From Candidatus Omnitrophota bacterium (GTDB lineage: Bacteria; Omnitrophota; Gorgyraeia; Tantalellales; Tantalellaceae), in contig JAQUQS010000001.1 of the NCBI GenBank assembly GCA_028715965.1, positions 1,259 to 65,258 on the forward strand: 64,000 nucleotides of DNA, given 5' to 3'. Below, piece by piece: positions 5,290-36,101 of the stretch; within the stretch, counting starts at the first letter, position 1, and each line of letters starts with the position of its first letter. A program made the translations under genes and the position numbers. The notes beneath the pieces were generated by a model. It did no database searches, was not told the origin of the DNA, and saw only the letters and a program-made list of their open reading frames with translations.

Positions 5290-5847
5290 TCAAGCTCTTT
5301 CTATATATTCCCCCGTACGGGTATCAACCTTTACTCGCTCATGTGGCCCCACAAAAAGAGGCACTTTCACCACTCGTCCCGTTTCTAGGGTCGCGGGCTT
5401 TGTCGCCCCTGAGACCGTGTTACCCTTGAAACCCGGTTCTGTCTCGATTATTTCCAGCACAACATGTATCGGCGGATCCACGGACATTATCTGCCCATCG
5501 AATATCTTCGCCGTAACCGTCATATTCTCTTTAAGAAAATCCTTTTTATCCCCGATCTTATCCTCGGATAGATGTACCTGCTCAAAAGTCTCATCATCCA
5601 TGAAACAATACCCCAGGTCATCCCTGTAAAGATACTGCATACTTTTCTGTTCAATGAACGCCTGCTCAAAAGTATCATCCGGCCTCAGGGTCTCGGAGAC
5701 GATGGCCCCCGTCGTAAGGTTACGTAACTTCGACCTTACGAACGCACCCCCCTTACCGGGTTTGTAATGCTGTGCTTCTACTACCTCATGGAGGGAATTG
5801 TTATACTCTATCACAGTTCCCGGCCTTAACTGTACCGCTCTTATCAT
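5290..5847 (-). CDS. efp: elongation factor P
   Basis: [44 protein letters not shown], 185 aa, with a KPGKG loop. Confidence 0.95.
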
Positions 5848-6926
5848 ACCGTTAACACCTCACACCCTTTCGAAGTGACCAGGACCATGTCCTCCTCGCG
5901 GACACCCGCAAGACCAGGACAATATAACCCCGGCTCTACCGTAACGACCATGCCTTCCATAAAAACGTCATTGCTTTGGCTTCCAAGATATGGTCTTTCA
6001 TGGACTTCAATACCTATTCCATGTCCCAGCCCATGGAGAGCATACTTTTTATATTTATAACCGGAAAATATTCCGGAAACGCCTTCAACTACAGAACTTA
6101 TCTTTACTCCCGGCCTTATCGAACTTATCGCCATATCATGCGCTTCATGTACGGCCCTCAAAAGGCCTTTAATTTTTCCGTTTATTCTACCTTTGTAAAA
6201 TGTTCTTGTCAAGTCAGAACAATATCCGTTATATAATATACCGAAATCTGCCAGAAGAAGCTTTCCTTCAGCAAAAGTAGCCGTCCCGGGGATAGCATGC
6301 GGATGGGCCGAATTGGGCCCTATAGCCACTATCGTCCGGAAAGAACTCTCGTATCCCAGGTCCCTCGTCCTCTTATCGATAAGAAAGGCTATATCGCTTT
6401 CCTTCATACCTTTTCTTACCTTTGCGCGCGCATACTCCCATATCCTGACGGTCTCCCTGGCGGCTTTTCGTATTATTCGCACCTCATCACGGCTCTTTAT
6501 CATCCGGATATCCATAAGGACCGATGCCGCGCTTCTACCCGAGATCGAACCGGAAAGGAACACGCCCCTGAGCTGTTTCTCTATATACTTGAACCGCGCT
6601 ACAGAAAGACTTTCCTCGTCGAACGCTATACGCTTTAAACCATTGTCCCCTGAATATGCAGCCAGATTCTCCGCTACCGGCCCCTTACACACGGATATGC
6701 CCTTTCCCTTGAGCTTGCTACTGGCAAGGGAAAAATTCATGCTATCCACAAAAAAGACTGGTCTTCCCCTTCGCGGGCACAAGAGCATGGAGCCGGACAC
6801 ATATAAACCGGCAATATATTCAATATCGTATCTGGCGGACAAAAGCAACGCGTCCATATTTCCGGCGCCACACGCGGCTTTTATCCCCTTCAGCGCGTAC
6901 CCCACGCGCAGGACATCATTTGCCAT
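5844..6926 (-). CDS. M24-family Xaa-Pro aminopeptidase / peptidase
   Basis: C-terminal pita-bread domain [17 protein letters not shown]. The conserved aroQ-pepP-efp-accBC gene order is retained. Confidence 0.8.
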
Positions 6927-7347
6927 CGATCAGCTCCCAGAGGCCCGCGAACCCCAGAAGATAACTGTTCTTCCCGAACCCGCTTATCTGCCCCTTCACC
7001 ACAGGCGCTACGAGAGACTTATGCCGGAACTCTTCCCGCGCGTATATGTTGGACATATGTACCTCGACCGATGGTATGTTCTTGGAACGCAACGCGTCAT
7101 GTATGGCCACACTGGTATGGGTATATGCGGCCGGGTTTATTAGTATGCCGTCCGCGTCGGTACTGTTTATCTTGTCGACTATATCCCCTTCGTGGTTGGA
7201 CTGGAAGAACTCCGCCACGCATCCCCTGGAATCCGCGAAATCCTTTATTGAGCTGTCTATCGTCTCGATCGTGTCACATCCATAGATATCGGTCTCCCGT
7301 TTCCCCAGCAGGTTGAGATTAGGACCGTGTATAACAAGTATCTTCAT
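6916..7347 (-). CDS. aroQ: type II 3-dehydroquinate dehydratase
   Basis: [23 protein letters not shown]...[15 protein letters not shown]. Confidence 0.9.
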
Positions 7348-7348
7348 G

Positions 7349-8383
7349 TCATTCCTCCTTAAGCGAACTTGAGCACTCGATCGTTAAACCTTTCTCCAGT
7401 CCCGGATCCACTCGGTCGCCGGCTGTTTTCTTTATCCCGGACACGCCCCACAACAGGCATACAACCCCTCCAAGAACACTAATGGCCATAAGCCCTAAAA
7501 GCAGGAGCAAACTTACCGCGAAAGCCGTCTCCTTGCCCGTTATGGGAGAGAACAGCGCTACGATCGCGCCTTCCCTTACTCCAAGTCCTCCTACTGACGG
7601 TATCATGCTTATGAAAGTGACAACGGGCATTATAAGGAACAAATTCATGATATCCACTTTTGCCCCCAAAGCCGAGAAAAGGACATATACCACAAGAAAG
7701 TAAATGCTCTGGGATACGATCGATACCCCGAGGGCCTTGAGGACCACATCTACGCGATTGCGATAATCATGCACTATACAATAGACCGCGTTCAGTTTCT
7801 CTCCCAAACGCAGCATTTTTACCCCGGAAAAGAACCTCTGAAGCGCGAGCGCGATACGCCTGTTGGTCACGACAACAAAGCCCACGATCCCCAGAAATAT
7901 AAGGGTGAACACCAGGGGACGTATAAGGGAAAGCTCGATGTTCTTCTGGTTGAACGCGAGTGCCACTCCGGCAACGATGAAGAACGCGTAAAACCCGATT
8001 ATGCGGTCCATGAAAACGCTGGCATAGGTCCGGATCCTGTTCCTGTGAGCGTATGTGGCGTAATGCGCCTTGATTATATCCCCGCCTACCGCGGTCGGCA
8101 TGAAATTGTTGAAAAAATATCCTATAAGAGTAAGCTGCAAGGCCTCGGTCATGTTCAGCTTGAGGTCCTCCCCGAAAAAGATAAGCTTCAACCTGTAAGC
8201 CAGCATTACGATATTCATCGAAAAAAGGATCGCGGCCACTACAAGATATCCCACGGGACAGGATAATATTATCTTGTATATGCCCCTGATCTCGTCCCGC
8301 ATAAGCCAGAACAAAAGCCCCAACAGGCCGAAGCTCACGATAGTACGCAACAACGCGGAGATCTTCCCGGAAATTCCACTCAT
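7349..8383 (-). CDS. flippase-like / lysylphosphatidylglycerol-synthase-TM-domain family integral membrane protein
   Basis: Polytopic, about 8 transmembrane helices, with [12 protein letters not shown] and [11 protein letters not shown] motifs reminiscent of the UPF0104/TIGR00374 family. Confidence 0.6.
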
Positions 8384-8420
8384 ATGGTCCAGCCAGGCCT
8401 TTTTATGATCGTTATGGCGT

Positions 8421-9239
8421 TCATAGCATGAAACTCAGTTTTAATTTCAGGCTCCTTATCACTTTTTCAGCGGCTATCTCGCCTTGTTTTATTATCTCGT
8501 CCGCTTTATCAAAATCGAACTGGTCCACTCCGTGGAGTTCCGGCTTAATAGCTATATCGGCTCCACGCGATTGATAGGCATTTAGTTCTTCTCCCATTAT
8601 CTGCACGGATTGTATCAAGGCCGTAATGACATTGTTCACCTTCTGGTTCTTGACCGCGAATCCCGGATTGACAGCCAGTACGAACTTCGCGCCGAACCCA
8701 TAAGCGGCTTTTGTAGGAATACTGTTCCTGACACCGCCGTCCACCAGAAGCCGCCCATCTATCTCCACCGCTGAAAATATACCCGGCCAGGAACAGCTGG
8801 CACGTATGAGCTTCACCAGGTCTCCCGACGTATGAACAAGCTCTTCTCCCGTCTCTATATCGGTGGTGGTAAGAGCGAAGGGTATCTTCATTTCGTTGAA
8901 ACTCTTGTTCTTCACCATGTCCACTATTATGCCCTCGAACTTGCTTCCCCGGATAAGACCCGTGGAAAAAACACCTATATCCACTATGTTCGGCCAGCTG
9001 AACTTAACGGCCTCTTTTTCCATTTCTTCCGGGGACATACCAAGACTGTACGCGGCACCTATCAGGCTCCCTATACTGGTACCGACTATCATATCGAAAG
9101 GCAGGCGGTCTTTTCCGAAGTTACGCTCAAGGGTCTTAAGCACCCCGATATTGGACAGACCTCGGGCGCCACCCCCACCGAGCGCTAATACTTTTTTTAC
9201 TTTTTTACCAAATCTACCAAAAATATCCATGGTCAACAT
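8421..9239 (-). CDS. patatin-like phospholipase
   Basis: Oxyanion hole GGGGARG and nucleophile elbow GTSIGS (GxSxG), plus a C-terminal DGG. Confidence 0.85.
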   Translation of the reverse strand: MLTMDIFGRFGKKVKKVLALGGGGARGLSNIGVLKTLERNFGKDRLPFDMIVGTSIGSLIGAAYSLGMSPEEMEKEAVKFSWPNIVDIGVFSTGLIRGSKFEGIIVDMVKNKSFNEMKIPFALTTTDIETGEELVHTSGDLVKLIRASCSWPGIFSAVEIDGRLLVDGGVRNSIPTKAAYGFGAKFVLAVNPGFAVKNQKVNNVITALIQSVQIMGEELNAYQSRGADIAIKPELHGVDQFDFDKADEIIKQGEIAAEKVIRSLKLKLSFML

Positions 9240-17962: not shown

Positions 17963-19987
17963 TCAGAATTCCAATGAAACGCCGAATTCGAAATTACTTT
18001 CGGGAGCCGGATATACCGCGATACTGCCAAGTAAGCCCTTGGTCCCGCTGGAATTATATCTTTCGTTCAGGATGTTCTTCGCGGAGAAGAATATCCTGAT
18101 GGCTTTCCATTCATACGAAACGTTCGCGTCAAGCGTTAGATACTGTTTAAGCTCAGGAGCGCTATTACTCTGATCGTTAGCGGCATACCTGGCCCCGACA
18201 AAATTCATAATAAGATCGGCCGCCAGACCTTTCCAGCGTTTTAGCCCTATCCTGGCGCTCAGCTTATTCTCCGGGACAAGCGGTATGTTCTTATTGTCGA
18301 ACTTACCTCCGTCAAAATACGACCTTTGCAGGGTATACCCCAAGCCTATCTCCACCCTGTCACTGATAACGGTCCCGGCCGAAAGTTCCAGCCCATGGTG
18401 AACGGTGTGGTGATAATTCCGGTTCAAATAATCATCCGGGTCATAATAGATCTCATTCTTATTATCTATGATGTAGTAATCGGCGCTCAACTCGAACGGT
18501 TCGAACGTCCTGTCGGAAATACCGATCTCGTAATTGTTGCCCACCTGCTGTTTTAGGCTGGTGTTCAATGAGGCGGGGACCTTGACGGCATCGAACTCAT
18601 ATGCGGACTGGAAGAACTCGTCCGTGGCCGGGTTCCTGTATGACCTCGCGTAATTGAAATACACACGGGAAGAGTCATTGTACTTATACCCCAGTCCACC
18701 GTCAAAAGCCAGGCCGATAGGGCTTTTCATGTCCTTGGAAGGAACGGGCTGGCCCTGGTCGAATATGTATTTTGTCCATTCGGTCCTTACTCCCCCACTT
18801 ACTATGAAACGCTCCTCCAGTATCAGGTTATCCGACAGGTACACACCGAACATATCCTTGGTAATATCCGCCTTGGACTCCGTGAGGGTCACGTCCCCGC
18901 TGCCAAAACTGTCCAACGCATGGAAATAATCCACGCCTACGATCAACTTGTTCTTCCCCAGCCCCCCCATGAGGATCGTCTCCCACTCGACCTTCGGGGA
19001 CCAGTCAAAAGAATCTATAAAGTGCCTGTTGGTACTCACGCTTCTTGAACGCGCTTTTCGCGACCTATAGGTCAGCGGGCTCGATATGGACACCTCCCCC
19101 CCATCGATCTCATAACGTTTACGAGGATCGAACGTGATAAAATAATCTTCCGTGTCAGCCTTACTATCCGGAAAGTGCGATATCCTCCGGCCATTATTCT
19201 CGATATTCGTGTTATAGAGCGCGCCGGGCTGGCCATACCAGTCACGGTGGTAACTGAACGCGAAATAGGCCTCAATGTCATCGCCAGGGGTAAAGGTAAA
19301 ATTTCCCATAGCGTCGTCAGCCTCGTATCGGTTATTGCTCCTGTACCCTTCCGTGAAGTCGTCCGAGTAACTGACAAAATAGTCCAGTATATCTTCCCCT
19401 CCATAAGCGGAAACATATTCTTTCCTGGCCTGGTAGCTTCCTATTTGCTGGGAAAACGACACGTGATGCCCCTTTCCGCCCTTTTTTGTGATAATGTTAA
19501 TAACGCCCCCCGTGGCGTTGTCGCCATAGAGCACATTCCTGGCTCCCCTTACGATCTCGATCCTATCGATGGAATTCACGTCTATCTGGGACATATCCGC
19601 CCCCGACAGGTCTATCTGGTTTATCCTGCGTCCGTCTATCAGCACAAGATAGTTCACCATGCCGGAATCCCCATATCCACGTATATCTATGGCGCTATTC
19701 TTGGGGTTATCCGCGAACCCTCCTATTATTATGCCCGGCTCACACTTGATGGCCTCCTGAACACTTCTCGCGCCCGAATCCTCTATCTCTTGCGCGGTTA
19801 TCACGCTTACGTTACTGTTCAGGTTGTACGGATATTCCGCGTACCTGGCCGGGGTCACAACAATGGCATCCAGCTCCATTACCTCGCTATCTTGTCCCCC
19901 AGAGCCCTCGGCACTAACTGAGGCGCAAAAAGCCCCAAAAAAAACAACGACCAGCAGCGCTACCACATGGACATTCCATTCCTTCAT
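17963..19987 (-). CDS. btuB: TonB-dependent outer-membrane receptor, probable vitamin B12 transporter (BtuB-like)
   Basis: Signal peptide MKEWNVHVVALLVVVFFGAFCASVSA, TonB box DAIVVTPA, a plug domain and a C-terminal aromatic residue (…LEF). The start is taken at ATG 19987 because a cobalamin riboswitch and terminator occupy 20016-20283. The ORF track's 20113 start would run through the terminator. Confidence 0.8.
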   Translation of the reverse strand: MKEWNVHVVALLVVVFFGAFCASVSAEGSGGQDSEVMELDAIVVTPARYAEYPYNLNSNVSVITAQEIEDSGARSVQEAIKCEPGIIIGGFADNPKNSAIDIRGYGDSGMVNYLVLIDGRRINQIDLSGADMSQIDVNSIDRIEIVRGARNVLYGDNATGGVINIITKKGGKGHHVSFSQQIGSYQARKEYVSAYGGEDILDYFVSYSDDFTEGYRSNNRYEADDAMGNFTFTPGDDIEAYFAFSYHRDWYGQPGALYNTNIENNGRRISHFPDSKADTEDYFITFDPRKRYEIDGGEVSISSPLTYRSRKARSRSVSTNRHFIDSFDWSPKVEWETILMGGLGKNKLIVGVDYFHALDSFGSGDVTLTESKADITKDMFGVYLSDNLILEERFIVSGGVRTEWTKYIFDQGQPVPSKDMKSPIGLAFDGGLGYKYNDSSRVYFNYARSYRNPATDEFFQSAYEFDAVKVPASLNTSLKQQVGNNYEIGISDRTFEPFELSADYYIIDNKNEIYYDPDDYLNRNYHHTVHHGLELSAGTVISDRVEIGLGYTLQRSYFDGGKFDNKNIPLVPENKLSARIGLKRWKGLAADLIMNFVGARYAANDQSNSAPELKQYLTLDANVSYEWKAIRIFFSAKNILNERYNSSGTKGLLGSIAVYPAPESNFEFGVSLEF

Positions 19988-20015
19988 TCTCTTTCCTTTC
20001 TGTGCAAAAAAAAAC

Positions 20016-20057
20016 CTCTTCTTCCGCATAGATAGGAAGAAGAGGTCAACCGTTTTT
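20016..20057 (-). terminator. intrinsic terminator (stem CCTCTTCTTCC / loop / GGAAGAAGAGG followed by a U9 tract); expression platform of the cobalamin riboswitch
   Basis: On the minus strand: cctcttcttcctatctatgcggaagaagagg + ttttttttt. It is followed by the RBS aaaggaaagaga and ATG 19987. Confidence 0.8.
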
Positions 20058-20099
20058 ACCTCATATGTATATGTTCTCTCAAGGCCTGATCCGGACCCG

Positions 20100-20275
20100 G
20101 ACAACTTTAACATACAGGCAGGTCTTCTGGCTTCCGGATCATCCTTCCTGCCCCGCCTTCCCGCTTATGATAAGCAGTGGCTTTCAGTGGGCTGAAGTCC
20201 CCGGTCACAGCGGCGGCACCGCGCCCGATCTTCACGGGCTTCCCTTTCAAGTCGCGATATCACCTGTATGGAATA
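20100..20275 (-). ncRNA. cobalamin (B12) riboswitch aptamer
   Basis: The minus-strand RNA reads …AGGTGATATCGCGACTTGAAAGGGAAGCCCGTGAAGATCGGGCGCGGTGCCGCCGCTGTGACCGGGG…GCCACTGcttatcataagcGGGAAGGC…. This matches the conserved cobalamin core (GGTG, AAGGGAA, GTGAAnATC, GCGGTnCCGCCnCTGTGA) and the B12 box GCCACTG…GGGAAGGC. Confidence 0.8.
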
Positions 20276-20283
20276 TATGTCGA

Positions 20284-20831: not shown

Positions 20832-22394
20832 TCACACCCTGACCCTTGAGAGCATGTACGAAAAAAAACCTCCCGCCATCGCGGTCAGGAGATATTTTAT
20901 ATTAACGGCCATCTGACTGTCAAGCCCCGGATATATCTTATATATCGATGCCGCGATAAGCCCCAGAATGAAATAATATGTACCCGCGGGTATTTTTTTT
21001 ATGCATATATCCATTATCTTGGAGAAGACCAGGATCCCTACCGCCGCGCCCATGCCTACGAAAAACAGTATCCCCACGGCCATTTCCCTTACAGCGTTGA
21101 GAACCGCGGAATATTGTCCCATAAGCACTAGCATGAAAGATCCGCTTATCCCGGGGACGATCATCGCGCCCCCGGCAAAAAATCCGGATATGACCAGCAT
21201 AGACCTGTAAATAAGGCCCGATCCGGCCTCCACGCTACCAGAAACGTTCCCTTCCATACGCACCATAGCCAGGCCTATCATAAGTATCATCCCCATAACA
21301 AAGGCCAGTATCCTGGTCGTACTCACGCCCATATCATCATGTGCCCGGAACATCGCGGGAACACCACCGGCTATCAGCCCCACAAAAAGGAACATCGTTA
21401 TCCTGTAATGTTCACTGAGCAGGTATTGCATCACACCGGCAAACGCGCCTATAGCCACCACAGCCCCCGACCCCAGTATCCCCAGAAAAAGTATATATGT
21501 CCCTTTTTTGGCTTTCGGGCTGAAAAAACAGGATATTGCCTCTATCAGCCTGGCATACACCCCAAGTACTACCGCTATGGTCCCACCGGAAACACCGGGG
21601 ATGATGTTAGCTACACCTATTACCATACCCTTGACGAAAAGAGAGACCGCGCCGGTAAGTGATGTGATCGGGACCATATCGTAGTCCCTTTTTGGGGTGT
21701 TGGCGGGGCATCTCCCTCCGGATGACAACATATACCTGGAAATAAGCCTGAAGAACCTCAAGGTGTCCACAATAGGGTTTATCTGTGATTTTTCCTCTCC
21801 ATATATCGTCCTTATGGGCACGGACTTTATCCTGGCACCGCGACGGGCGGCAATTATGAGCATTTCTGTCTCAATGTCGAAATTCTTTGAACATAGCCGG
21901 GTATCCCTGAAACATGCCGCCCGGAGCAGCCTGTATCCGCACTGCGTGTCGGATATCTTCTGTCCACACATATTAGATATGAACCACGACATAAAACGAT
22001 TGGTCCAATACCTTACGGCTGGCATATCTCGCGTATCAGCCATCCTATCCCCAGAAACTATGTCCGCGTCGACGGCGGCAGCCATCATCGCGCCGATATT
22101 GGCCGTGTCATGCTGCCCATCCCCATCCATGAGCAATATCCACTCGAACCTTGTTTTGTTGATCACATGTTCAAGGCCTTCCCTCACGGAAAACCCCTTA
22201 CCCTTGTTCTTTTTGTGCTGGATGATCTCCGCGCCGGCTTCGACCGCTATTCGCGCGGTATCATCGGTCGAGCCGTCATCAATAACCAGGACCTTCAACC
22301 CTTTGCCCGCTATTTCACGAACGATACGGTCTATGGTCCTCGCCTCGTTAAAGGAAGGTATTACGACTATCGTGTTTTCTTTTACACATCCCAT
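20832..22394 (-). CDS. fusion protein: N-terminal GT2 polyprenyl-phosphate glycosyltransferase (DPM1/GtrB-like) plus C-terminal DUF368 (PopT-type undecaprenyl-phosphate translocase family) membrane domain
   Basis: Residues 1-230: IVVIPSFNEARTI…VLVIDDGSTDDT…LLMDGDGQHD (GT2). Residues ~245-520: GVANIIPGVSGGTIAVVLGVY … IVPGISGSFMLVLMGQY, a duplicated DUF368-type motif in a polytopic domain. It is one continuous 520-aa ORF. Confidence 0.75.
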   Translation of the reverse strand: MGCVKENTIVVIPSFNEARTIDRIVREIAGKGLKVLVIDDGSTDDTARIAVEAGAEIIQHKKNKGKGFSVREGLEHVINKTRFEWILLMDGDGQHDTANIGAMMAAAVDADIVSGDRMADTRDMPAVRYWTNRFMSWFISNMCGQKISDTQCGYRLLRAACFRDTRLCSKNFDIETEMLIIAARRGARIKSVPIRTIYGEEKSQINPIVDTLRFFRLISRYMLSSGGRCPANTPKRDYDMVPITSLTGAVSLFVKGMVIGVANIIPGVSGGTIAVVLGVYARLIEAISCFFSPKAKKGTYILFLGILGSGAVVAIGAFAGVMQYLLSEHYRITMFLFVGLIAGGVPAMFRAHDDMGVSTTRILAFVMGMILMIGLAMVRMEGNVSGSVEAGSGLIYRSMLVISGFFAGGAMIVPGISGSFMLVLMGQYSAVLNAVREMAVGILFFVGMGAAVGILVFSKIMDICIKKIPAGTYYFILGLIAASIYKIYPGLDSQMAVNIKYLLTAMAGGFFSYMLSRVRV

Positions 22395-23239
22395 ATTTTC
22401 CTAAAAACATACCATTGGTCAGGATAGCTTCTTATGTAAGATTCGAACTTGCTTATATATCTGGTCATCAGGGCCTTTACATCATCTTCATCCCGGCCCG
22501 TACTTTCCGGATAGATCGGTTCTTCAAAGAACATGCAGAACTTGTCTCCTTCCATGCGCGTAACCACCGTGAAAACTATGGGCGCGCCCGTTCTCAGCGC
22601 GAAGGCCGCCGCGCCTTTTGGCATTATCGCCTTACGGCCGAAGAACTCCACGGGTATCCCGGTATTCGTGTAATCCTTGTCCCCCACGATCGCCAGTATT
22701 TCATTCCTCTTCAGGACTTTGTAACATTCCTTTATGGATATTCCAAGAGGTATGGACCTTAGCCCGTTTATAGCGCGTTGCTTAACGAAAAAGTCATTCA
22801 CTTTTCTATCCGGCTGCTCGAGTATTATAGCGCTTATGGGATAATTCAGCCCTCCGATTATAGCGCCCCCAAGTTCCCAGTTCCCTAAATGCAGCGATAA
22901 AAGTATCAGCCCCTTCCCGCTTTCCAAGGCTTTATCCAGGTTCTCCCTGCCGCGCAACGTTATGTGGCGTGCTATATGATCCTCGGTAAACCTTGTGAAC
23001 CTGAAAAAATCGACCAGATATCTGGCGAAGTTCCTGAAAACGGCATGCACATGCCTGTCAAGGACCTTATCGTCCACATCATCGCCTAATACCACTCTCA
23101 GGTTAGACCTTAACGCGGCTTTATCTTCCCGGCCGAACGCACAAAAAAGCCGGGCCACCCTATCCGCGATAAAATAAGACACTTTTATCGGTATGGCGTT
23201 AGCGAGAAAATAACCCGTCCTGTAAAGTAAATACAACAT
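22382..23239 (-). CDS. lysophospholipid/lipid A-type acyltransferase (LpxL/HtrB family, LPLAT)
   Basis: 285 aa with an N-terminal membrane anchor and the HLGNWELGG acyltransferase motif (HX4D-like region). Confidence 0.75.
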   Translation of the reverse strand: MLYLLYRTGYFLANAIPIKVSYFIADRVARLFCAFGREDKAALRSNLRVVLGDDVDDKVLDRHVHAVFRNFARYLVDFFRFTRFTEDHIARHITLRGRENLDKALESGKGLILLSLHLGNWELGGAIIGGLNYPISAIILEQPDRKVNDFFVKQRAINGLRSIPLGISIKECYKVLKRNEILAIVGDKDYTNTGIPVEFFGRKAIMPKGAAAFALRTGAPIVFTVVTRMEGDKFCMFFEEPIYPESTGRDEDDVKALMTRYISKFESYIRSYPDQWYVFRKIWDV

Positions 23240-23240
23240 A

Positions 23241-24359
23241 CTATAAGATATCTTTGACCAGTTTCGCTATGTTCAACGCGCTGTCGGGCCTGGCTATTTT
23301 ACCCGCCGCGATCTTCATCCCGTCAATAACACCTTTAGCATCAAAAAGTTCGTTCATGCTCTGATGTATCGCGTCTATGTTCTTGATCTCTACCGCTACA
23401 CCCTTCCTGACAAGATAATCCGTATTCAGTCTCTCATGTCCAGGTATAGGATCGACTATTATGAGCGGCAGGCGCTTGACCATCGATTCGGCTATGGTCA
23501 TTCCTCCTGGTTTAGATATTATAACATCAGAGACCTCCATAAGCTCCTCTATGTTCTTGACATATGTCATGGTCATGAGCCTGCCGCCGGTCTTTTTCTT
23601 TTCAAGCTTTTTCAGCTTCGAGTACAACTTCTTGTTCGTACCGGTGACCACTACCAGGCGGTAATTATGTTCTTCGTCCGAGAGAAGCGAACGTACTACG
23701 ACCTCCATCGCGCCTATCCCCTGGCTTCCTCCCATTATAAGGATCACGGGCGCGTCGCCCTCAAGCTTTAACCTCTCTTTTACATCTTCCCGGTCCAATC
23801 CCACGCTGAACTTCGGGTCGACCGGTATCCCGTAAGCTTTCACTTTCTTGCTGGGGACCCCTTTCTTTATGAGCGTTTCCCCGGTCTCCTCGGATGGAAC
23901 TATGTAATAATCCACTTCATCATAAAGCCAGTAAGAATGTGGAGCGTGATCCGTAAGTACACCTATAAGCGGGGTATCCTTACCTATGGACCTCTTATAA
24001 TCGGCCACCATGCCACAGGGAAAAGCCTGAGTACATAACACCACGTCGGGATCATGGGCGTCTATAAGCTTCCTGACCTTGGACATGTTGAACTTGTGGA
24101 TCGCCTCCCTGGCCTTGCTGGTCTTTTTCATGAATTCCGGGTTGTCGTATATGTTGCCCCATATTTCCGGTCTTTTCTTTATGACCTGCATATACGCCTT
24201 ATTTATCACCTTTTCCAGGATCGGATTGGTATAGCTAAAGGCATTGATCTTGTCGACCTCTATATTACCCAGGACAGAGACCAGCCCCTGCTCTATGGCG
24301 CTAGCGGCGTGGAAATGCCCTGAATGCCTTGATATGTAGAAAATAAGCGCTTTTTTCAT
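23241..24359 (-). CDS. GT28-family glycosyltransferase (monogalactosyl/glucosyl-diacylglycerol synthase-like)
   Basis: MKKALIFYISRHSGHFHAASAIEQGL N-terminus and a C-terminal GT-B nucleotide-sugar-binding half (GGSQG…PGGMTIAE), typical of MGDG synthase/UgtP-like enzymes. The ORF track starts 12 codons upstream at 24395. Confidence 0.75.
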   Translation of the reverse strand: MKKALIFYISRHSGHFHAASAIEQGLVSVLGNIEVDKINAFSYTNPILEKVINKAYMQVIKKRPEIWGNIYDNPEFMKKTSKAREAIHKFNMSKVRKLIDAHDPDVVLCTQAFPCGMVADYKRSIGKDTPLIGVLTDHAPHSYWLYDEVDYYIVPSEETGETLIKKGVPSKKVKAYGIPVDPKFSVGLDREDVKERLKLEGDAPVILIMGGSQGIGAMEVVVRSLLSDEEHNYRLVVVTGTNKKLYSKLKKLEKKKTGGRLMTMTYVKNIEELMEVSDVIISKPGGMTIAESMVKRLPLIIVDPIPGHERLNTDYLVRKGVAVEIKNIDAIHQSMNELFDAKGVIDGMKIAAGKIARPDSALNIAKLVKDIL

Positions 24360-24363
24360 GATC

Positions 24364-24636
24364 TTATCCGCGCAGGATATCGTTCCCGCCGGCACCGTCC
24401 TCTCTCTCCATAAGCGCTATAATATCGCCCGGGACCGCTTCCGCTCCCACTTCCTTCATTTTTTTTATCAAAACTCCTCCGAAGGGTGCCGGCACATCAA
24501 AGGTCGCCTTATCCGTGGATATTTCCAGAAGGTCCTGTCCTTCCACCACTTTTTCGTTCTCCTGCACATGCCATGACACTATAACGGAGATCTCTTCCTG
24601 TTCCGCCACATCCGGAAGCTTTAACTCCAAGATCAT
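24364..24636 (-). CDS. stand-alone lipoyl (biotin/lipoyl attachment) domain protein
   Basis: 90 aa with LPDVAEQEEISVIVSWHV…EGQDLLEISTDKATFDVPAPFGGVL. The lipoyl-lysine motif is ETDK-like (STDKAT). Confidence 0.7.
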   Translation of the reverse strand: MILELKLPDVAEQEEISVIVSWHVQENEKVVEGQDLLEISTDKATFDVPAPFGGVLIKKMKEVGAEAVPGDIIALMEREDGAGGNDILRG

Positions 24637-35102: not shown

Positions 35103-36101
35103 TTACTTCTCTTCCTTTTCTTCTTCATCTACTTCATAACCGAGATGCAACCCCATCGAGGAAAGAACACTGTTTATCTCGTTCAGGGACTTTTTACCGA
35201 AATTCTTATATTTAAGCATCTCTGTTTCTTTCCTTTTAACAAGGTCGCCTATGGTCCGGATATTCGCTTCCGCGAGACAGTTCGAACTTCTGACTGAAAG
35301 CTCCAATTCGGAAATAGGCTTGGAAAGCTTCTTTACCGTTTCTTTCCTTTCCTTCGTTTCTTCCTCTTCTTCCTCGATCTCTTCGGGAAGCTTACCTATG
35401 GTCATGAACACGTCAAGATGTCTCTGCATGATATTGGCCGCGTAAAGTATGGCATCCTTGGGCTCCATACTTCCGTTGGTGTGTATCTCCATTATAAGCT
35501 TATCATAATCGGTTATATGCCCGACCCTGGTATTCTCCACATCAAGGTTCACGCATGTAACGGGAGAGAACATCGAATCAACGGCCAAAAGCCCTATAGG
35601 CTCATCGCCCGTCTTATTAAGTTCCGCCGGTACATACCCCCTGCCCCTCTCGACCACAAGCTCCATCTCAAAACTCACGTCCTCGGTGAGTGTAGCAATA
35701 TGATGTTCCAAGTTGACCACTTCAACTGTTTCATCGACCTTTATATCCCCGCCTTTAACCTCGCCCTTCTTGTTGACGCTGATGAAAAGGGATTTGGGGT
35801 TGCGAAAATGTGACCTGAGGACCAGTCCTTTTATGTTCATTATTATCTGGCTCATATCCTCAAGAACACCGGGGATAGTCGAGAACTCATGCAGAACACC
35901 CTGTAGTTTCACCTGCGTTACAGCGGTCCCCTCTATGGAAGACAAGAGCACCCGTCTCAAGGAATTGCCCACCGTTATACCATACCCTTTTTCGAACGGT
36001 TCAGCCGCGAACCTGCCGTAAGTCTTACTATACGTATCATCCTCGAAGACTATTCTTTTGGGCAATTCGAATTGTTTAAGTTTCATCCCCATCTCTATCA
36101 A
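35103..36101 (-). CDS. rpoA: DNA-directed RNA polymerase subunit alpha
   Basis: 332 aa with N-terminal domain motifs and a C-terminal domain (…SIEELELSVRSSNCLA…). Confidence 0.95.
   Translation of the reverse strand: MIEMGMKLKQFELPKRIVFEDDTYSKTYGRFAAEPFEKGYGITVGNSLRRVLLSSIEGTAVTQVKLQGVLHEFSTIPGVLEDMSQIIMNIKGLVLRSHFRNPKSLFISVNKKGEVKGGDIKVDETVEVVNLEHHIATLTEDVSFEMELVVERGRGYVPAELNKTGDEPIGLLAVDSMFSPVTCVNLDVENTRVGHITDYDKLIMEIHTNGSMEPKDAILYAANIMQRHLDVFMTIGKLPEEIEEEEEETKERKETVKKLSKPISELELSVRSSNCLAEANIRTIGDLVKRKETEMLKYKNFGKKSLNEINSVLSSMGLHLGYEVDEEEKEEK

Follow-up and report, generated by a model that had tools for sequence, protein, structure and literature searches.

Why would a glycosyltransferase predicted to act on the cell-wall carrier lipid undecaprenyl phosphate (C55-P) be covalently tied to a predicted translocase of that same lipid, and is such a protein genuine in the first place? 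These questions are raised by a locus of an uncultured Omnitrophota bacterium lying in the stretch of DNA that we analyzed as a whole (64,000 nucleotides; hereinafter the window). The ORF at 20832..22394 (minus strand) is a single frame with an ATG start encoding 520 amino acids followed by a stop codon, the two other frames of the same stretch being interrupted by 43 and 20 stops, and it is 100% identical to P0001, a protein with the NCBI name 'MAG: DUF368 domain-containing protein [Candidatus Omnitrophica bacterium]'. In addition to NCBIfam matches, Pfam searches placed PF00535 (Glycos_transf_2) over aa 10-159, with 69.3 bits where the cut-off is 23.3, and PF04018 (VCA0040-like/DUF368) over aa 259-491, with 153.6 bits where it is 26 and with profile positions 1-232 of 246 covered. 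The preliminary description of this DNA had proposed a GT2-DUF368 fusion running through one ORF without any stop or frameshift; this architecture holds, as do the PF00535 and PF04018 assignments of the two halves, both above their Pfam cut-offs, and every motif that it quoted (the GT2 signature, PGVSGGT, PGISGSF and the linker SSGGRCPANTPKRDYD) is present in the ORF.

The N-terminal GT2 catalytic domain (aa 1-223; 21726..22394, minus strand), delimited using PF00535, fold and PDB sequence matches, and standalone orthologues, is DPM1/ArnC/GtrB-like and displays the motifs IVVIPSFNE (aa 9-17), VIDDGSTDDT (aa 37-46) and MDGDGQHD (aa 89-96). The DxD catalytic residues, on which the glycosyltransferase claim of the preliminary description depended, are retained as D90-G-D92 within MDGDGQH (22119..22127, minus strand); these align with the DAD of ArnC and are invariant in all fusions and in a 15-sequence GT2 alignment. 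Likewise, D149-T-Q-C-G-Y-R, a D-x-x-[CS]-G-[FY]-R segment, aligns with GDYGCMLR of ArnC and is invariant in our alignments A1 and A3. Foldseek searches of the PDB placed ArnC, DPMS and GtrB at ranks 1-13 (best matches with E-values of 1e-9 to 1e-6), with GpgS and MpgS next, and sequence matches in the PDB were to ArnC and PfDPMS. The GT2 half shares the GT-A fold and the DxD motif with ArnC, GtrB and DPMS, at a sequence identity of only 14-21%; by analogy, it would be expected to share their chemistry, namely transfer from an NDP-sugar to polyprenyl-P to yield polyprenyl-P-sugar. We considered the NCBIfam equivalogs as a guide to the identity of the sugar and rejected them, as every match, the first three over aa 9-221, fell far under its cut-off (AglJ, 122.4 vs 325 bits; PpgS, 86.4 vs 370; Dol-P hexose transferase, 71.2 vs 375; ArnC, 33 vs 529).

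ArnC and GtrB are each anchored by two C-terminal TM helices within the same protein, and PfDPMS by four. We found no such anchor in the GT2 half or in its standalone orthologues, of which there are more than 120 (~221-262 aa); these lack any TM helix and end ~10-20 residues past the last helix of the catalytic domain. In the fusion, the next helices are those of DUF368, such that a ten-helix transporter takes the place of the ArnC, GtrB and PfDPMS helices. Human DPM1 and mycobacterial Ppm1 also lack an anchor of their own and rely on a partner. Two close relatives of the GT2 half (45-46% identity) carry a fused partner, which is a PMT_2 GT-C transferase named 'dolichyl-phosphate-mannose-protein mannosyltransferase' in P0306 and a MOP flippase in P0250; these two fusions support a polyprenyl-P-sugar product, and the GT-C family uses polyprenyl-P-sugar donors. 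WaaA is a further fusion partner of close GT2 relatives. On these sequence and fold relationships, the GT2 half is predicted to be a cytoplasmic polyprenyl-phosphate glycosyltransferase of the DPM1/ArnC/GtrB type, whose lipid acceptor we infer to be C55-P.

The C-terminal half (aa 240-520; 20835..21677, minus strand) was recognized as a complete DUF368/PopT-type domain from PF04018, the NCBIfam PopT model, the N-termini of standalone homologues, conserved columns and the DNA sequence. The PopT model aligns nearly end to end (aa 253-517, E-value 3.7e-46, model positions 8-276 of 277) and, together with the Pfam score, bears out the DUF368 assignment made in the preliminary description; the scores lie below the NCBIfam equivalog cut-offs of 400 (PopT, 157.9 bits; Vibrio transporter, 119.3 bits), and C55-P translocation is here a prediction from sequence. 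Among the columns at least 85% conserved in 34 standalone DUF368 homologues, 59 of 62 are retained, and the three differences are conservative. The AlphaFold2 model displays an internal two-fold repeat with five helical elements per repeat and a PG[VI]SG hairpin in each half: the first motif, PGVSGGT (aa 266-272; 21579..21599, minus strand), starts hairpin 1 (helices 270-277/280-288) and the second, PGISGSF (aa 414-420; 21135..21155, minus strand), starts hairpin 2 (helices 418-424/428-436), with both motifs also supported by alignment and standalone homologues. PopT of S. aureus (SAOUHSC_00846) and VCA0040 of V. cholerae belong to the same PF04018 family and have the same two motifs in the internal repeat; these are standalone proteins, whereas the Omnitrophota protein adds a 239-residue GT2 plus linker at the N-terminus. 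Identity to standalone Omnitrophota DUF368 proteins is ~47-51%, and one of these adjoins a PBP transpeptidase gene. A family-wide positive-inside analysis of loop charges on the AlphaFold2 helices points to an N-in topology, which would place the GT2 in the cytoplasm. No solved DUF368 structure was found among the sequence or fold matches listed, and Sit et al. report no DUF368 point mutants with tested function. By its family membership, this half is thus a candidate canonical DUF368/PopT-type C55-P translocase.

The two domains are joined by the linker (aa 224-239; 21678..21725, minus strand; delimited by pLDDT, alignment and the tails of standalone GT2s). It is the counterpart of the native C-terminal tail of the standalone GT2s and, in the alignment, includes an insertion of ~15 aa that P0002 and P0003 lack. 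M240 lines up with the N-termini of standalone DUF368 proteins, and an RBS-like AAGGGA precedes it; judged by where standalone homologues end and begin, the protein simply reads through from the GT2 tail into the DUF368 start, and these coinciding termini show both halves to be complete at the sequence level. AlphaFold2 models two folded domains (mean pLDDT 91, pTM 0.67) with a disordered Ser/Gly/Pro linker between them, as had been anticipated, the disorder (pLDDT <50) being confined to residues 231-237; at this pTM the relative orientation of the domains, and hence the geometry of any channelling, is not predicted with confidence.

The linker is also where an error of sequencing or assembly could lie: a 1-base indel within the C4/A5 run (codons 233-235) could have merged a GT2 gene of ~257-262 aa with a DUF368 gene starting at M240. 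The insertion is unique to this sequence and holds homopolymers followed by the RBS-like element and an in-frame ATG, and a simulated +/-1 indel yields a plausible overlapping gene pair. However, the identical 520-aa product occurs on four contigs, including the independent Logan assemblies of two runs (SRR22315508 and SRR22315506); collinear fused relatives lacking the insertion are found in the syntenic loci L001 and L002 (48-51% identity), with further collinear fusions in a distant clade (35-38% identity); and the GC pattern by codon position is unbroken across the junction (GC3 of 0.60 and 0.57 on its two sides). Given the independent assemblies and the divergent fused homologues, an artefactual frameshift is very unlikely, and the concern raised in the preliminary description is settled in favor of a genuine fusion. 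The survey of its spread found it to be real yet rare, with two clusters among 1.84 billion protein representatives. The tree of the GT2 agrees with that of DUF368, and each of the two distant clades mixes fused and adjacent-unfused forms, implying at least two fusion events from neighboring genes.

We then used the gene neighborhoods to place the fusion in its pathway context. Directly upstream lie a gene for an LpxL/PatA-like acyltransferase (PF03279; 22382..23239, minus strand; Pfam, NCBIfam and locus contexts), which overlaps the start of the fusion gene by 13 nt and is a conserved neighbor in both fusion clades, and one for a UgtP/MGDG-synthase-like GT28 glycolipid synthase (23241..24395, minus strand; Pfam, NCBIfam, ORF list, DNA sequence and locus contexts), the real start of which is probably the ATG at 24359. 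The glycolipid-cluster setting suggested earlier is thereby borne out. The parent operon has the order GT28 glycolipid synthase, LpxL/PatA-like acyltransferase, GT2 and then a membrane-transporter slot, and its first three genes form a tightly conserved triad (14 of the 80 loci). The slot is occupied by DUF368 (fused or separate), by PF06695 of the DedA superfamily (9 loci), or by a MOP flippase (L034). In L013 the GT28 and acyltransferase are themselves fused and the GT2 is followed directly by DUF368; L007 shows the same synteny with a PCMT gene between GT2 and DUF368; and in L010 a WaaA::GT2 gene is followed by DUF368 with a 4-nt overlap, a third configuration linking GT2 and DUF368. Most orthologous GT2 genes have no nearby translocase gene, indicating that the coupling is not obligatory.

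The gene downstream of the fusion codes for DUF6580, an ECF-S/BtuM-like vitamin transporter, on which we found no literature and which is outside the pathway. One strong promoter-like site lies upstream of it; across the operon, the counts from a promoter and terminator scan were not above the shuffled expectation. Among the genes scanned in the window, none codes for a GT-C, GtrA, MOP or DedA protein. The sole flippase-like gene among them codes for an LPG_synthase_TM protein at 7349-8383, which lies in an unrelated context.

Bringing these threads together, we favor, with a probability of roughly 55% for the reading as a whole, including the assignments of the two halves, a protein whose DUF368 domain carries C55-P back to the cytoplasmic leaflet, where the tethered GT2, devoid of its own anchor, reloads it with a sugar; the direction of transport, the channelling, the sugar and the final acceptor are what we infer here. 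Under this reading, a periplasmic transferase would remove the sugar from C55-P-sugar and free C55-P in the outer leaflet, the DUF368 domain would bring the phosphate head group back to the cytoplasmic leaflet, and the fusion would keep the GT2 at the membrane surface, where it would recharge C55-P from a nucleotide sugar. The fusion would then join the last and the first step of the C55-P-monosaccharide cycle and also provide the GT2 with its missing anchor. The product may feed the extracytoplasmic glycosylation of a lipid-anchored glycan, be it the acylated glycolipid of the GT28 and acyltransferase or LPS/lipid A. This recycling reading is supported by the occurrence of PF06695 in the same slot as DUF368: Okawa et al. 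assign PF06695 to the DedA superfamily, as a branch of unknown function, and the two families linked to C55-P recycling are DedA and DUF368. In Pseudomonas, DedA and DUF368 are mutually exclusive and interchangeable, and C55-P flipping limits the ArnC-dependent L-Ara4N pathway. Against it, the GT-C and the GtrA/MOP exporter of such a cycle are unseen among the genes scanned in the window, and both the MOP flippase in the slot of L034 and the GT2::MOP fusion P0250 suit export as well as recycling. The preliminary description had envisaged a self-contained module that makes, presents or recycles a lipid-linked sugar; the comparative context now lends this proposed module stronger support, although recycling and presenting (export) are not separable on it.

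Export, or two-way transport, would have the DUF368 domain flip the C55-P-sugar made by the GT2 to the periplasmic leaflet, much like GtrA or ArnE/F, and perhaps exchange it for C55-P, in which case the fusion would unite synthesis with presentation rather than recycling with synthesis. The two MOP linkages just mentioned favor this, as MurJ, a MOP flippase, moves lipid II outward; so does the want of another exporter candidate, given that DUF6580 is a vitamin transporter and that neither GtrA nor MOP occurs among the genes scanned in the window, and neither the direction nor the energy source of DUF368 transport is settled in the literature. We nonetheless consider export unlikely, at around one chance in five by our judgment: 59 of the 62 conserved columns and both PG[VI]SG motifs are retained and the identity to standalone DUF368s, including the one beside the PBP transpeptidase gene, is ~47-51%, giving no sign of a change of substrate, and the experiments on DUF368 and DedA proteins concern retrograde transport of C55-P. 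Somewhat more doubtful is an equilibrative or exchanging 'turnstile', with C55-P in and C55-P-sugar out, whose direction is set by the GT2 trapping C55-P; if true, one protein would perform three of the four steps of the C55-P-monosaccharide cycle and, by extension, the PF06695 proteins of the slot would be a third, so far unrecognized group of polyprenyl-phosphate(-sugar) translocases. Quite improbable, in our estimation, is direct action of the GT2 on the glycolipid of the GT28 and acyltransferase, or on Kdo-lipid A, with DUF368, PF06695 or MOP exporting the finished glycolipid as LtaA does Glc2-DAG. The recurrence of the triad, the GT28::acyltransferase fusion of L013, the WaaA::GT2 fusions and the alternation of three unrelated transporter families in the slot are all in keeping with it; however, the top-ranking relatives of the GT2 in sequence and in fold are all polyprenyl-phosphate glycosyltransferases, one close relative carries a fused GT-C domain (PMT_2), and we know of no DUF368 protein that moves glycolipids.

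A further alternative, also unlikely, is that the DUF368 domain is a general C55-P translocase serving peptidoglycan and other pathways and acts as a mere tether for the GT2, the fusion being a near-neutral read-through without kinetic coupling. This would account for the GT2 orthologues that lack a TM helix and for the simple tail-to-start join, and related anchorless synthases do need a membrane partner. In M. tuberculosis Ppm1 (Rv2051c), an Lnt domain is fused to the PPM synthase; M. smegmatis and C. glutamicum encode the two in separate genes side by side, and the stand-alone Ppm1 of M. smegmatis makes direct contact with Ppm2/Lnt, its proposed membrane anchor. The membrane partner is proposed to anchor or activate the synthase; unlike in our fusion, this partner is the N-acyltransferase Lnt rather than a carrier-lipid translocase, and the membrane domain is N-terminal. 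The rarity of the fusion and the mixing of fused and split forms within one clade also suggest weak selection for the fused state. On the other hand, GT2 and DUF368 are linked in four configurations, in two distant clades and with congruent trees, and another transporter family fills the slot where DUF368 is absent; this recurrent linkage and replacement argue for a functional rather than an accidental partnership.

The published translocase fusions (DedA-PAP2, PAP2-DUF368, DUF368-PAP2 and DUF368-BacA), presented as 'Rosetta stone' evidence in both founding papers, resemble the Omnitrophota fusion in covalently tying a C55-P translocase to an adjacent carrier-lipid step. In them, that step is the preceding one, the dephosphorylation of C55-PP on the outer face, whereas in the Omnitrophota fusion it would be the following one, in which C55-P is glycosylated again at the cytoplasmic face. 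Instead of a C55-PP phosphatase, the partner here is a GT2, and the published lists hold only PAP2, BacA and DUF368 duplications: neither the 'Notable domain architectures' table of Sit et al. nor the text of Roney and Rudner mentions the GT2-DUF368 architecture, and we found no description of it in the DUF368 literature. The YclJ regulon of B. subtilis (yngABC, ykcBC), with the GT2 YkcC, the GtrA-like YngA, the GT-C YkcB and UptA, offers a functional parallel, being a C55-P-monosaccharide cycle with a C55-P translocase that 'completes the cycle'. There each component has a gene of its own, a DedA-type protein serves as the translocase, and the exporter and GT-C are encoded with the set; in the Omnitrophota locus only the synthase and the translocase are seen, fused to each other.

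Genetics, antibiotic probes, binding studies and gene context underpin the view that DUF368 and DedA proteins are C55-P flippases, and a 2026 paper still asks for flipping to be reconstituted directly. On the upstream side of the cycle, a link is provided by the known PAP2 and BacA fusions; a DUF368 domain fused to a consumer of cytoplasm-facing C55-P would be an independent 'Rosetta stone' link on its downstream side, and to this extent the rare natural fusion supports the proposed flippase role. It may also afford a coupled assay with a sealed vesicle, in which the tethered GT2 would signal, by transferring sugar, that C55-P has reached the cis face. The presence of PF06695 in the same slot as DUF368 constitutes a testable prediction for the function of PF06695. 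More generally, the survey defines a widespread and uncharacterized Omnitrophota/PVC envelope-glycolipid operon, comprising a GT28, an acyltransferase and an anchorless GT2.

The minus-strand ORF at 20832–22394 comprises 520 codons from an ATG start; the remaining two frames are interrupted here by 43 and 20 stops, and codon-position GC is equal on either side of the junction between its halves. Pfam models recovered a glycosyltransferase family 2 (GT2) domain (PF00535-type Glycos_transf_2) at residues 10–159 (69.3 bits; cut-off 23.3) and DUF368 (PF04018, currently named 'VCA0040-like, undecaprenyl phosphate translocase-like') at residues 259–491 (153.6 bits; cut-off 26). The preliminary description, which had proposed a single uninterrupted ORF encoding GT2 followed by DUF368, is thus borne out, and all the motifs it quoted are found in their places. 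NCBIfam models matched below their equivalog cut-offs: AglJ, PpgS, Dol-P hexose transferase, and ArnC over residues 9–221, and PopT (model positions 8–276 of 277) over residues 253–517. An AlphaFold2 model built from a 75-sequence alignment (mean pLDDT 91) displays the two folded domains and linker envisaged earlier, with pLDDT below 50 only at residues 231–237; the pTM of 0.67 does not fix the orientation of the domains relative to each other.

We found the identical 520-aa product on four contigs, including Logan assemblies of two different runs, in which the neighboring genes match too. Uninterrupted fusions were also recovered at two homologous loci (L001 and L002) sharing the same long syntenic block at only 48–51% protein identity, and in a second clade at 35–38% identity (P0004, named Verrucomicrobiota, P0005, P0010, and P0241). 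These findings favor a true fusion over a frameshift that joined two genes, an error for which the preliminary description had allowed. Peculiar to the window protein is a linker insertion of ~15 residues, within which lie runs of C4 and A5, the RBS-like sequence AAGGGA, and the in-frame ATG of M240. As a simulated ±1 indel in the C4/A5 region yields two overlapping genes, we retain a very small residual probability that an indel in these runs really splits the copy in the window's genome. The AAGGGA lies 7 nt upstream of the M240 ATG (21675–21700, minus strand); together they look like the leftover start of a once separate DUF368 gene, from which a standalone translocase might still be initiated internally.

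The origin of the fusion is apparent from comparison with unfused homologs. Standalone GT2 orthologs end 10–20 residues past the ...DT(L/I)RFF.L..(R/K)(Y/H) helix, standalone DUF368 proteins begin 10–20 residues ahead of ...(F/L).KG..IGVANIIPGVSGGT, and the GT2 tail of the window protein (RYMLSSGGRCPANTPKRDYD) passes directly into M240-VPITSLTGAVSLFVKG. Since the halves meet at the ends of their standalone counterparts, two complete genes have simply been joined by read-through. The same synteny is seen unfused in an Omnitrophica MAG (L007; GCA_014728045.1), in the order GT28–acyltransferase–GT2 (239 aa)–PCMT-like methyltransferase–DUF368–DUF6580–TonB receptor, and L013 has an unfused GT2–DUF368 pair behind a single ORF fusing GT28 and acyltransferase. 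Neighbor-joining distance trees of the two halves, computed without support values, are congruent: an Omnitrophota clade mixes the fused window, L001, and L002 with the split L007 and L013, and a distant clade unites the Verrucomicrobiota-type fusions with L010, where a WaaA::GT2 fusion overlaps a following DUF368 gene by 4 nt (5620–8657). Accordingly, the pair has been co-inherited and has fused at least twice. When 1.84 billion cluster representatives (50% identity) were searched exhaustively with HMMER, two full-length fusion clusters emerged, P0001 (identical to the window protein) and P0241; all other matches among the top 150 comprised one half only, GT2 or DUF368. The GT2 half has >120 standalone orthologs (221–262 aa, 47–62% identity), the named ones nearly all from Omnitrophota, and among species-representative genomes the 80 best GT2 loci all lack the fusion. 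Surveyed among relatives, as had been suggested at the outset, the fusion is thus genuine but rare.

The DUF368 half is a complete, canonical family member; in the AlphaFold2 model its ten helical elements form two repeats, both with a PG[VI]SG hairpin. It retains 59 of the 62 columns that are ≥85% conserved in 34 standalone homologs, the three differences being conservative, and shares 47–51% identity with standalone proteins from Omnitrophota, among them P0016, whose gene adjoins one for a PBP transpeptidase. Across 46 family members the loop charges alternate, with the N-tail, L2, L4, and L8 net positive (+0.8 to +1.8) and L3, L5, L7, and L9 neutral to negative. Counting each hairpin as a crossing, this pattern suggests an N-in, C-in topology, which would place the fused GT2 in the cytoplasm with the nucleotide sugars.

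For the GT2 half, the best PDB sequence matches are ArnC and P. furiosus DPMS, and Foldseek ranks 1–13 are all polyprenyl-phosphate glycosyltransferases (ArnC, DPMS, and GtrB). D39-D40, D90-x-D92-x-Q94-H95, and D149-T-Q-C-G are invariant in the alignments, so the catalytic DxD expected by the preliminary description is present as D90-x-D92. This half lacks a transmembrane helix of its own; likewise, human DPM1 and mycobacterial Ppm1 have none and depend on a membrane partner. M. tuberculosis Rv2051c combines Lnt and the PPM synthase domain in one protein; M. smegmatis and C. glutamicum encode them by separate, neighboring genes, and a Ppm1–Ppm2 interaction is reported. In other organisms, GT2 domains closely related to this one are joined to a PMT_2 GT-C transferase (P0306; 46% identity, 777 aa), a MOP/Wzx-type flippase (P0250; 45%, 645 aa), a PCMT-like methyltransferase (P0259), and the Kdo transferase WaaA (P0024; 683 aa). 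As GT-C enzymes use polyprenyl-P-sugar donors, these fusions support the product assignment of the GT2 half.

A conserved triad of GT28 (UgtP/MGDG-synthase-like), PF03279 acyltransferase, and GT2 genes occurs in 14 of the 80 surveyed loci (L012–L017, L023, L027, L028, L030–L032, L034, and L035), in MAGs labeled Omnitrophota, Planctomycetia, or Verrucomicrobiia, besides the window (22382–24395, minus strand), L001, L002, and L007. Its product may be an acylated glycolipid; the best NCBIfam matches of the acyltransferase, PIM acyltransferase and LpxL, are below cut-off. The operon slot after GT2, sometimes beyond a PCMT-like gene, holds one of three families: DUF368, fused (window, L001, L002, L003, and L005) or separate (L007, L013, L010, and L037), with DUF368 also in L050; PF06695 ('Sm_multidrug_ex') in nine loci (L012, at 8273–8830; L014–L017; L022, weakly; L023; L031; and L032); or a MOP flippase as a separate neighbor of GT2 (L034, 7606–8925). 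In 18 loci (e.g., L007 5433–6080 and L012 7599–8324) GT2 is closely followed by the PCMT-type (protein isoaspartate O-methyltransferase-like) gene, which sits between GT2 and the translocase gene wherever the latter is present and is missing from the window operon. DedA and DUF368 are the two families implicated in recycling of undecaprenyl phosphate (C55-P); in Pseudomonas the two exclude each other yet are interchangeable, and flippase loss blocks ArnC-dependent L-Ara4N modification of lipid A. PF06695 belongs to the DedA superfamily, its function being described as unknown (Okawa et al.). Given this interchangeability, the alternation between DUF368 and a DedA-superfamily protein in this slot is the contextual evidence that most strongly supports a carrier-lipid translocase working together with GT2, and the shared slot suggests polyprenyl-phosphate(-sugar) translocation as the function of PF06695 proteins. 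In the distant clade the acyltransferase is the only triad member kept beside the fusion; this and the WaaA partner of GT2 in L010 suggest that the final target lies in late lipid A/LPS steps or is a related lipid-anchored glycan. The WaaA::GT2–DUF368 arrangement recurs in L011, tying the pair to lipid A core synthesis.

Elsewhere in the window, a cobalamin riboswitch (RF00174, 108.3 bits; 20100–20282, minus strand) begins 2 nt past the DUF6580 stop and lies 5′ of a TonB-dependent receptor ORF (17963–20113); since the listed ORF start overlaps the riboswitch, translation probably begins at the more internal MKEW... methionine. Genes for a patatin-like phospholipase and an LPG_synthase_TM (MprF-type flippase-like) membrane protein lie side by side (7349–9239, minus strand), ~12 kb from the fusion with unrelated genes between. 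GC skew is negative in each 2-kb bin over 1–64000 (−0.11 to −0.27), and almost all identified genes are on the minus strand. A large ribosomal-protein/EF-Tu/RNA polymerase cluster evidently spans ~35–58 kb, of which only the RNA polymerase alpha subunit (35103–36101) is Pfam-confirmed.

We favor, with a probability of roughly 0.55, a recycle-and-reload module for C55-P: a periplasmic transferase would free C55-P, the DUF368 domain would bring it back, and the tethered GT2 would reload it, with the fusion providing the anchor that GT2 otherwise lacks. The main rival, that the DUF368 domain instead exports C55-P-sugar, is distinctly less probable, though the MOP flippase in the same slot and the absence of an exporter gene from the operon speak for it. 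The rarity of the fused state agrees with a fusion that serves anchoring only or is near-neutral, which we consider somewhat less probable still. Direct action of GT2 on the glycolipid would agree with the triad but is at odds with all the affinities of this domain, making it improbable.

Both domain families are already known, as is the principle that a translocase may be fused to a neighboring step. The two founding papers and later literature describe DedA-PAP2, PAP2-DUF368, DUF368-PAP2, DUF368-DUF368, and DUF368-BacA fusions; we found no GT2-DUF368 architecture in the text of the founding papers, in later literature, or in Supplementary Table 3 of Sit et al., and databases name the window protein only 'DUF368 domain-containing protein' or 'undecaprenyl phosphate translocase family protein', in keeping with the initial view of an uncharacterized architecture. 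The published DedA-PAP2 and DUF368-PAP2/BacA fusions parallel that in the window but join the preceding step. The value of the GT2::DUF368 fusion lies in its link on the downstream side, in a possible coupled assay, and in the prediction for PF06695.
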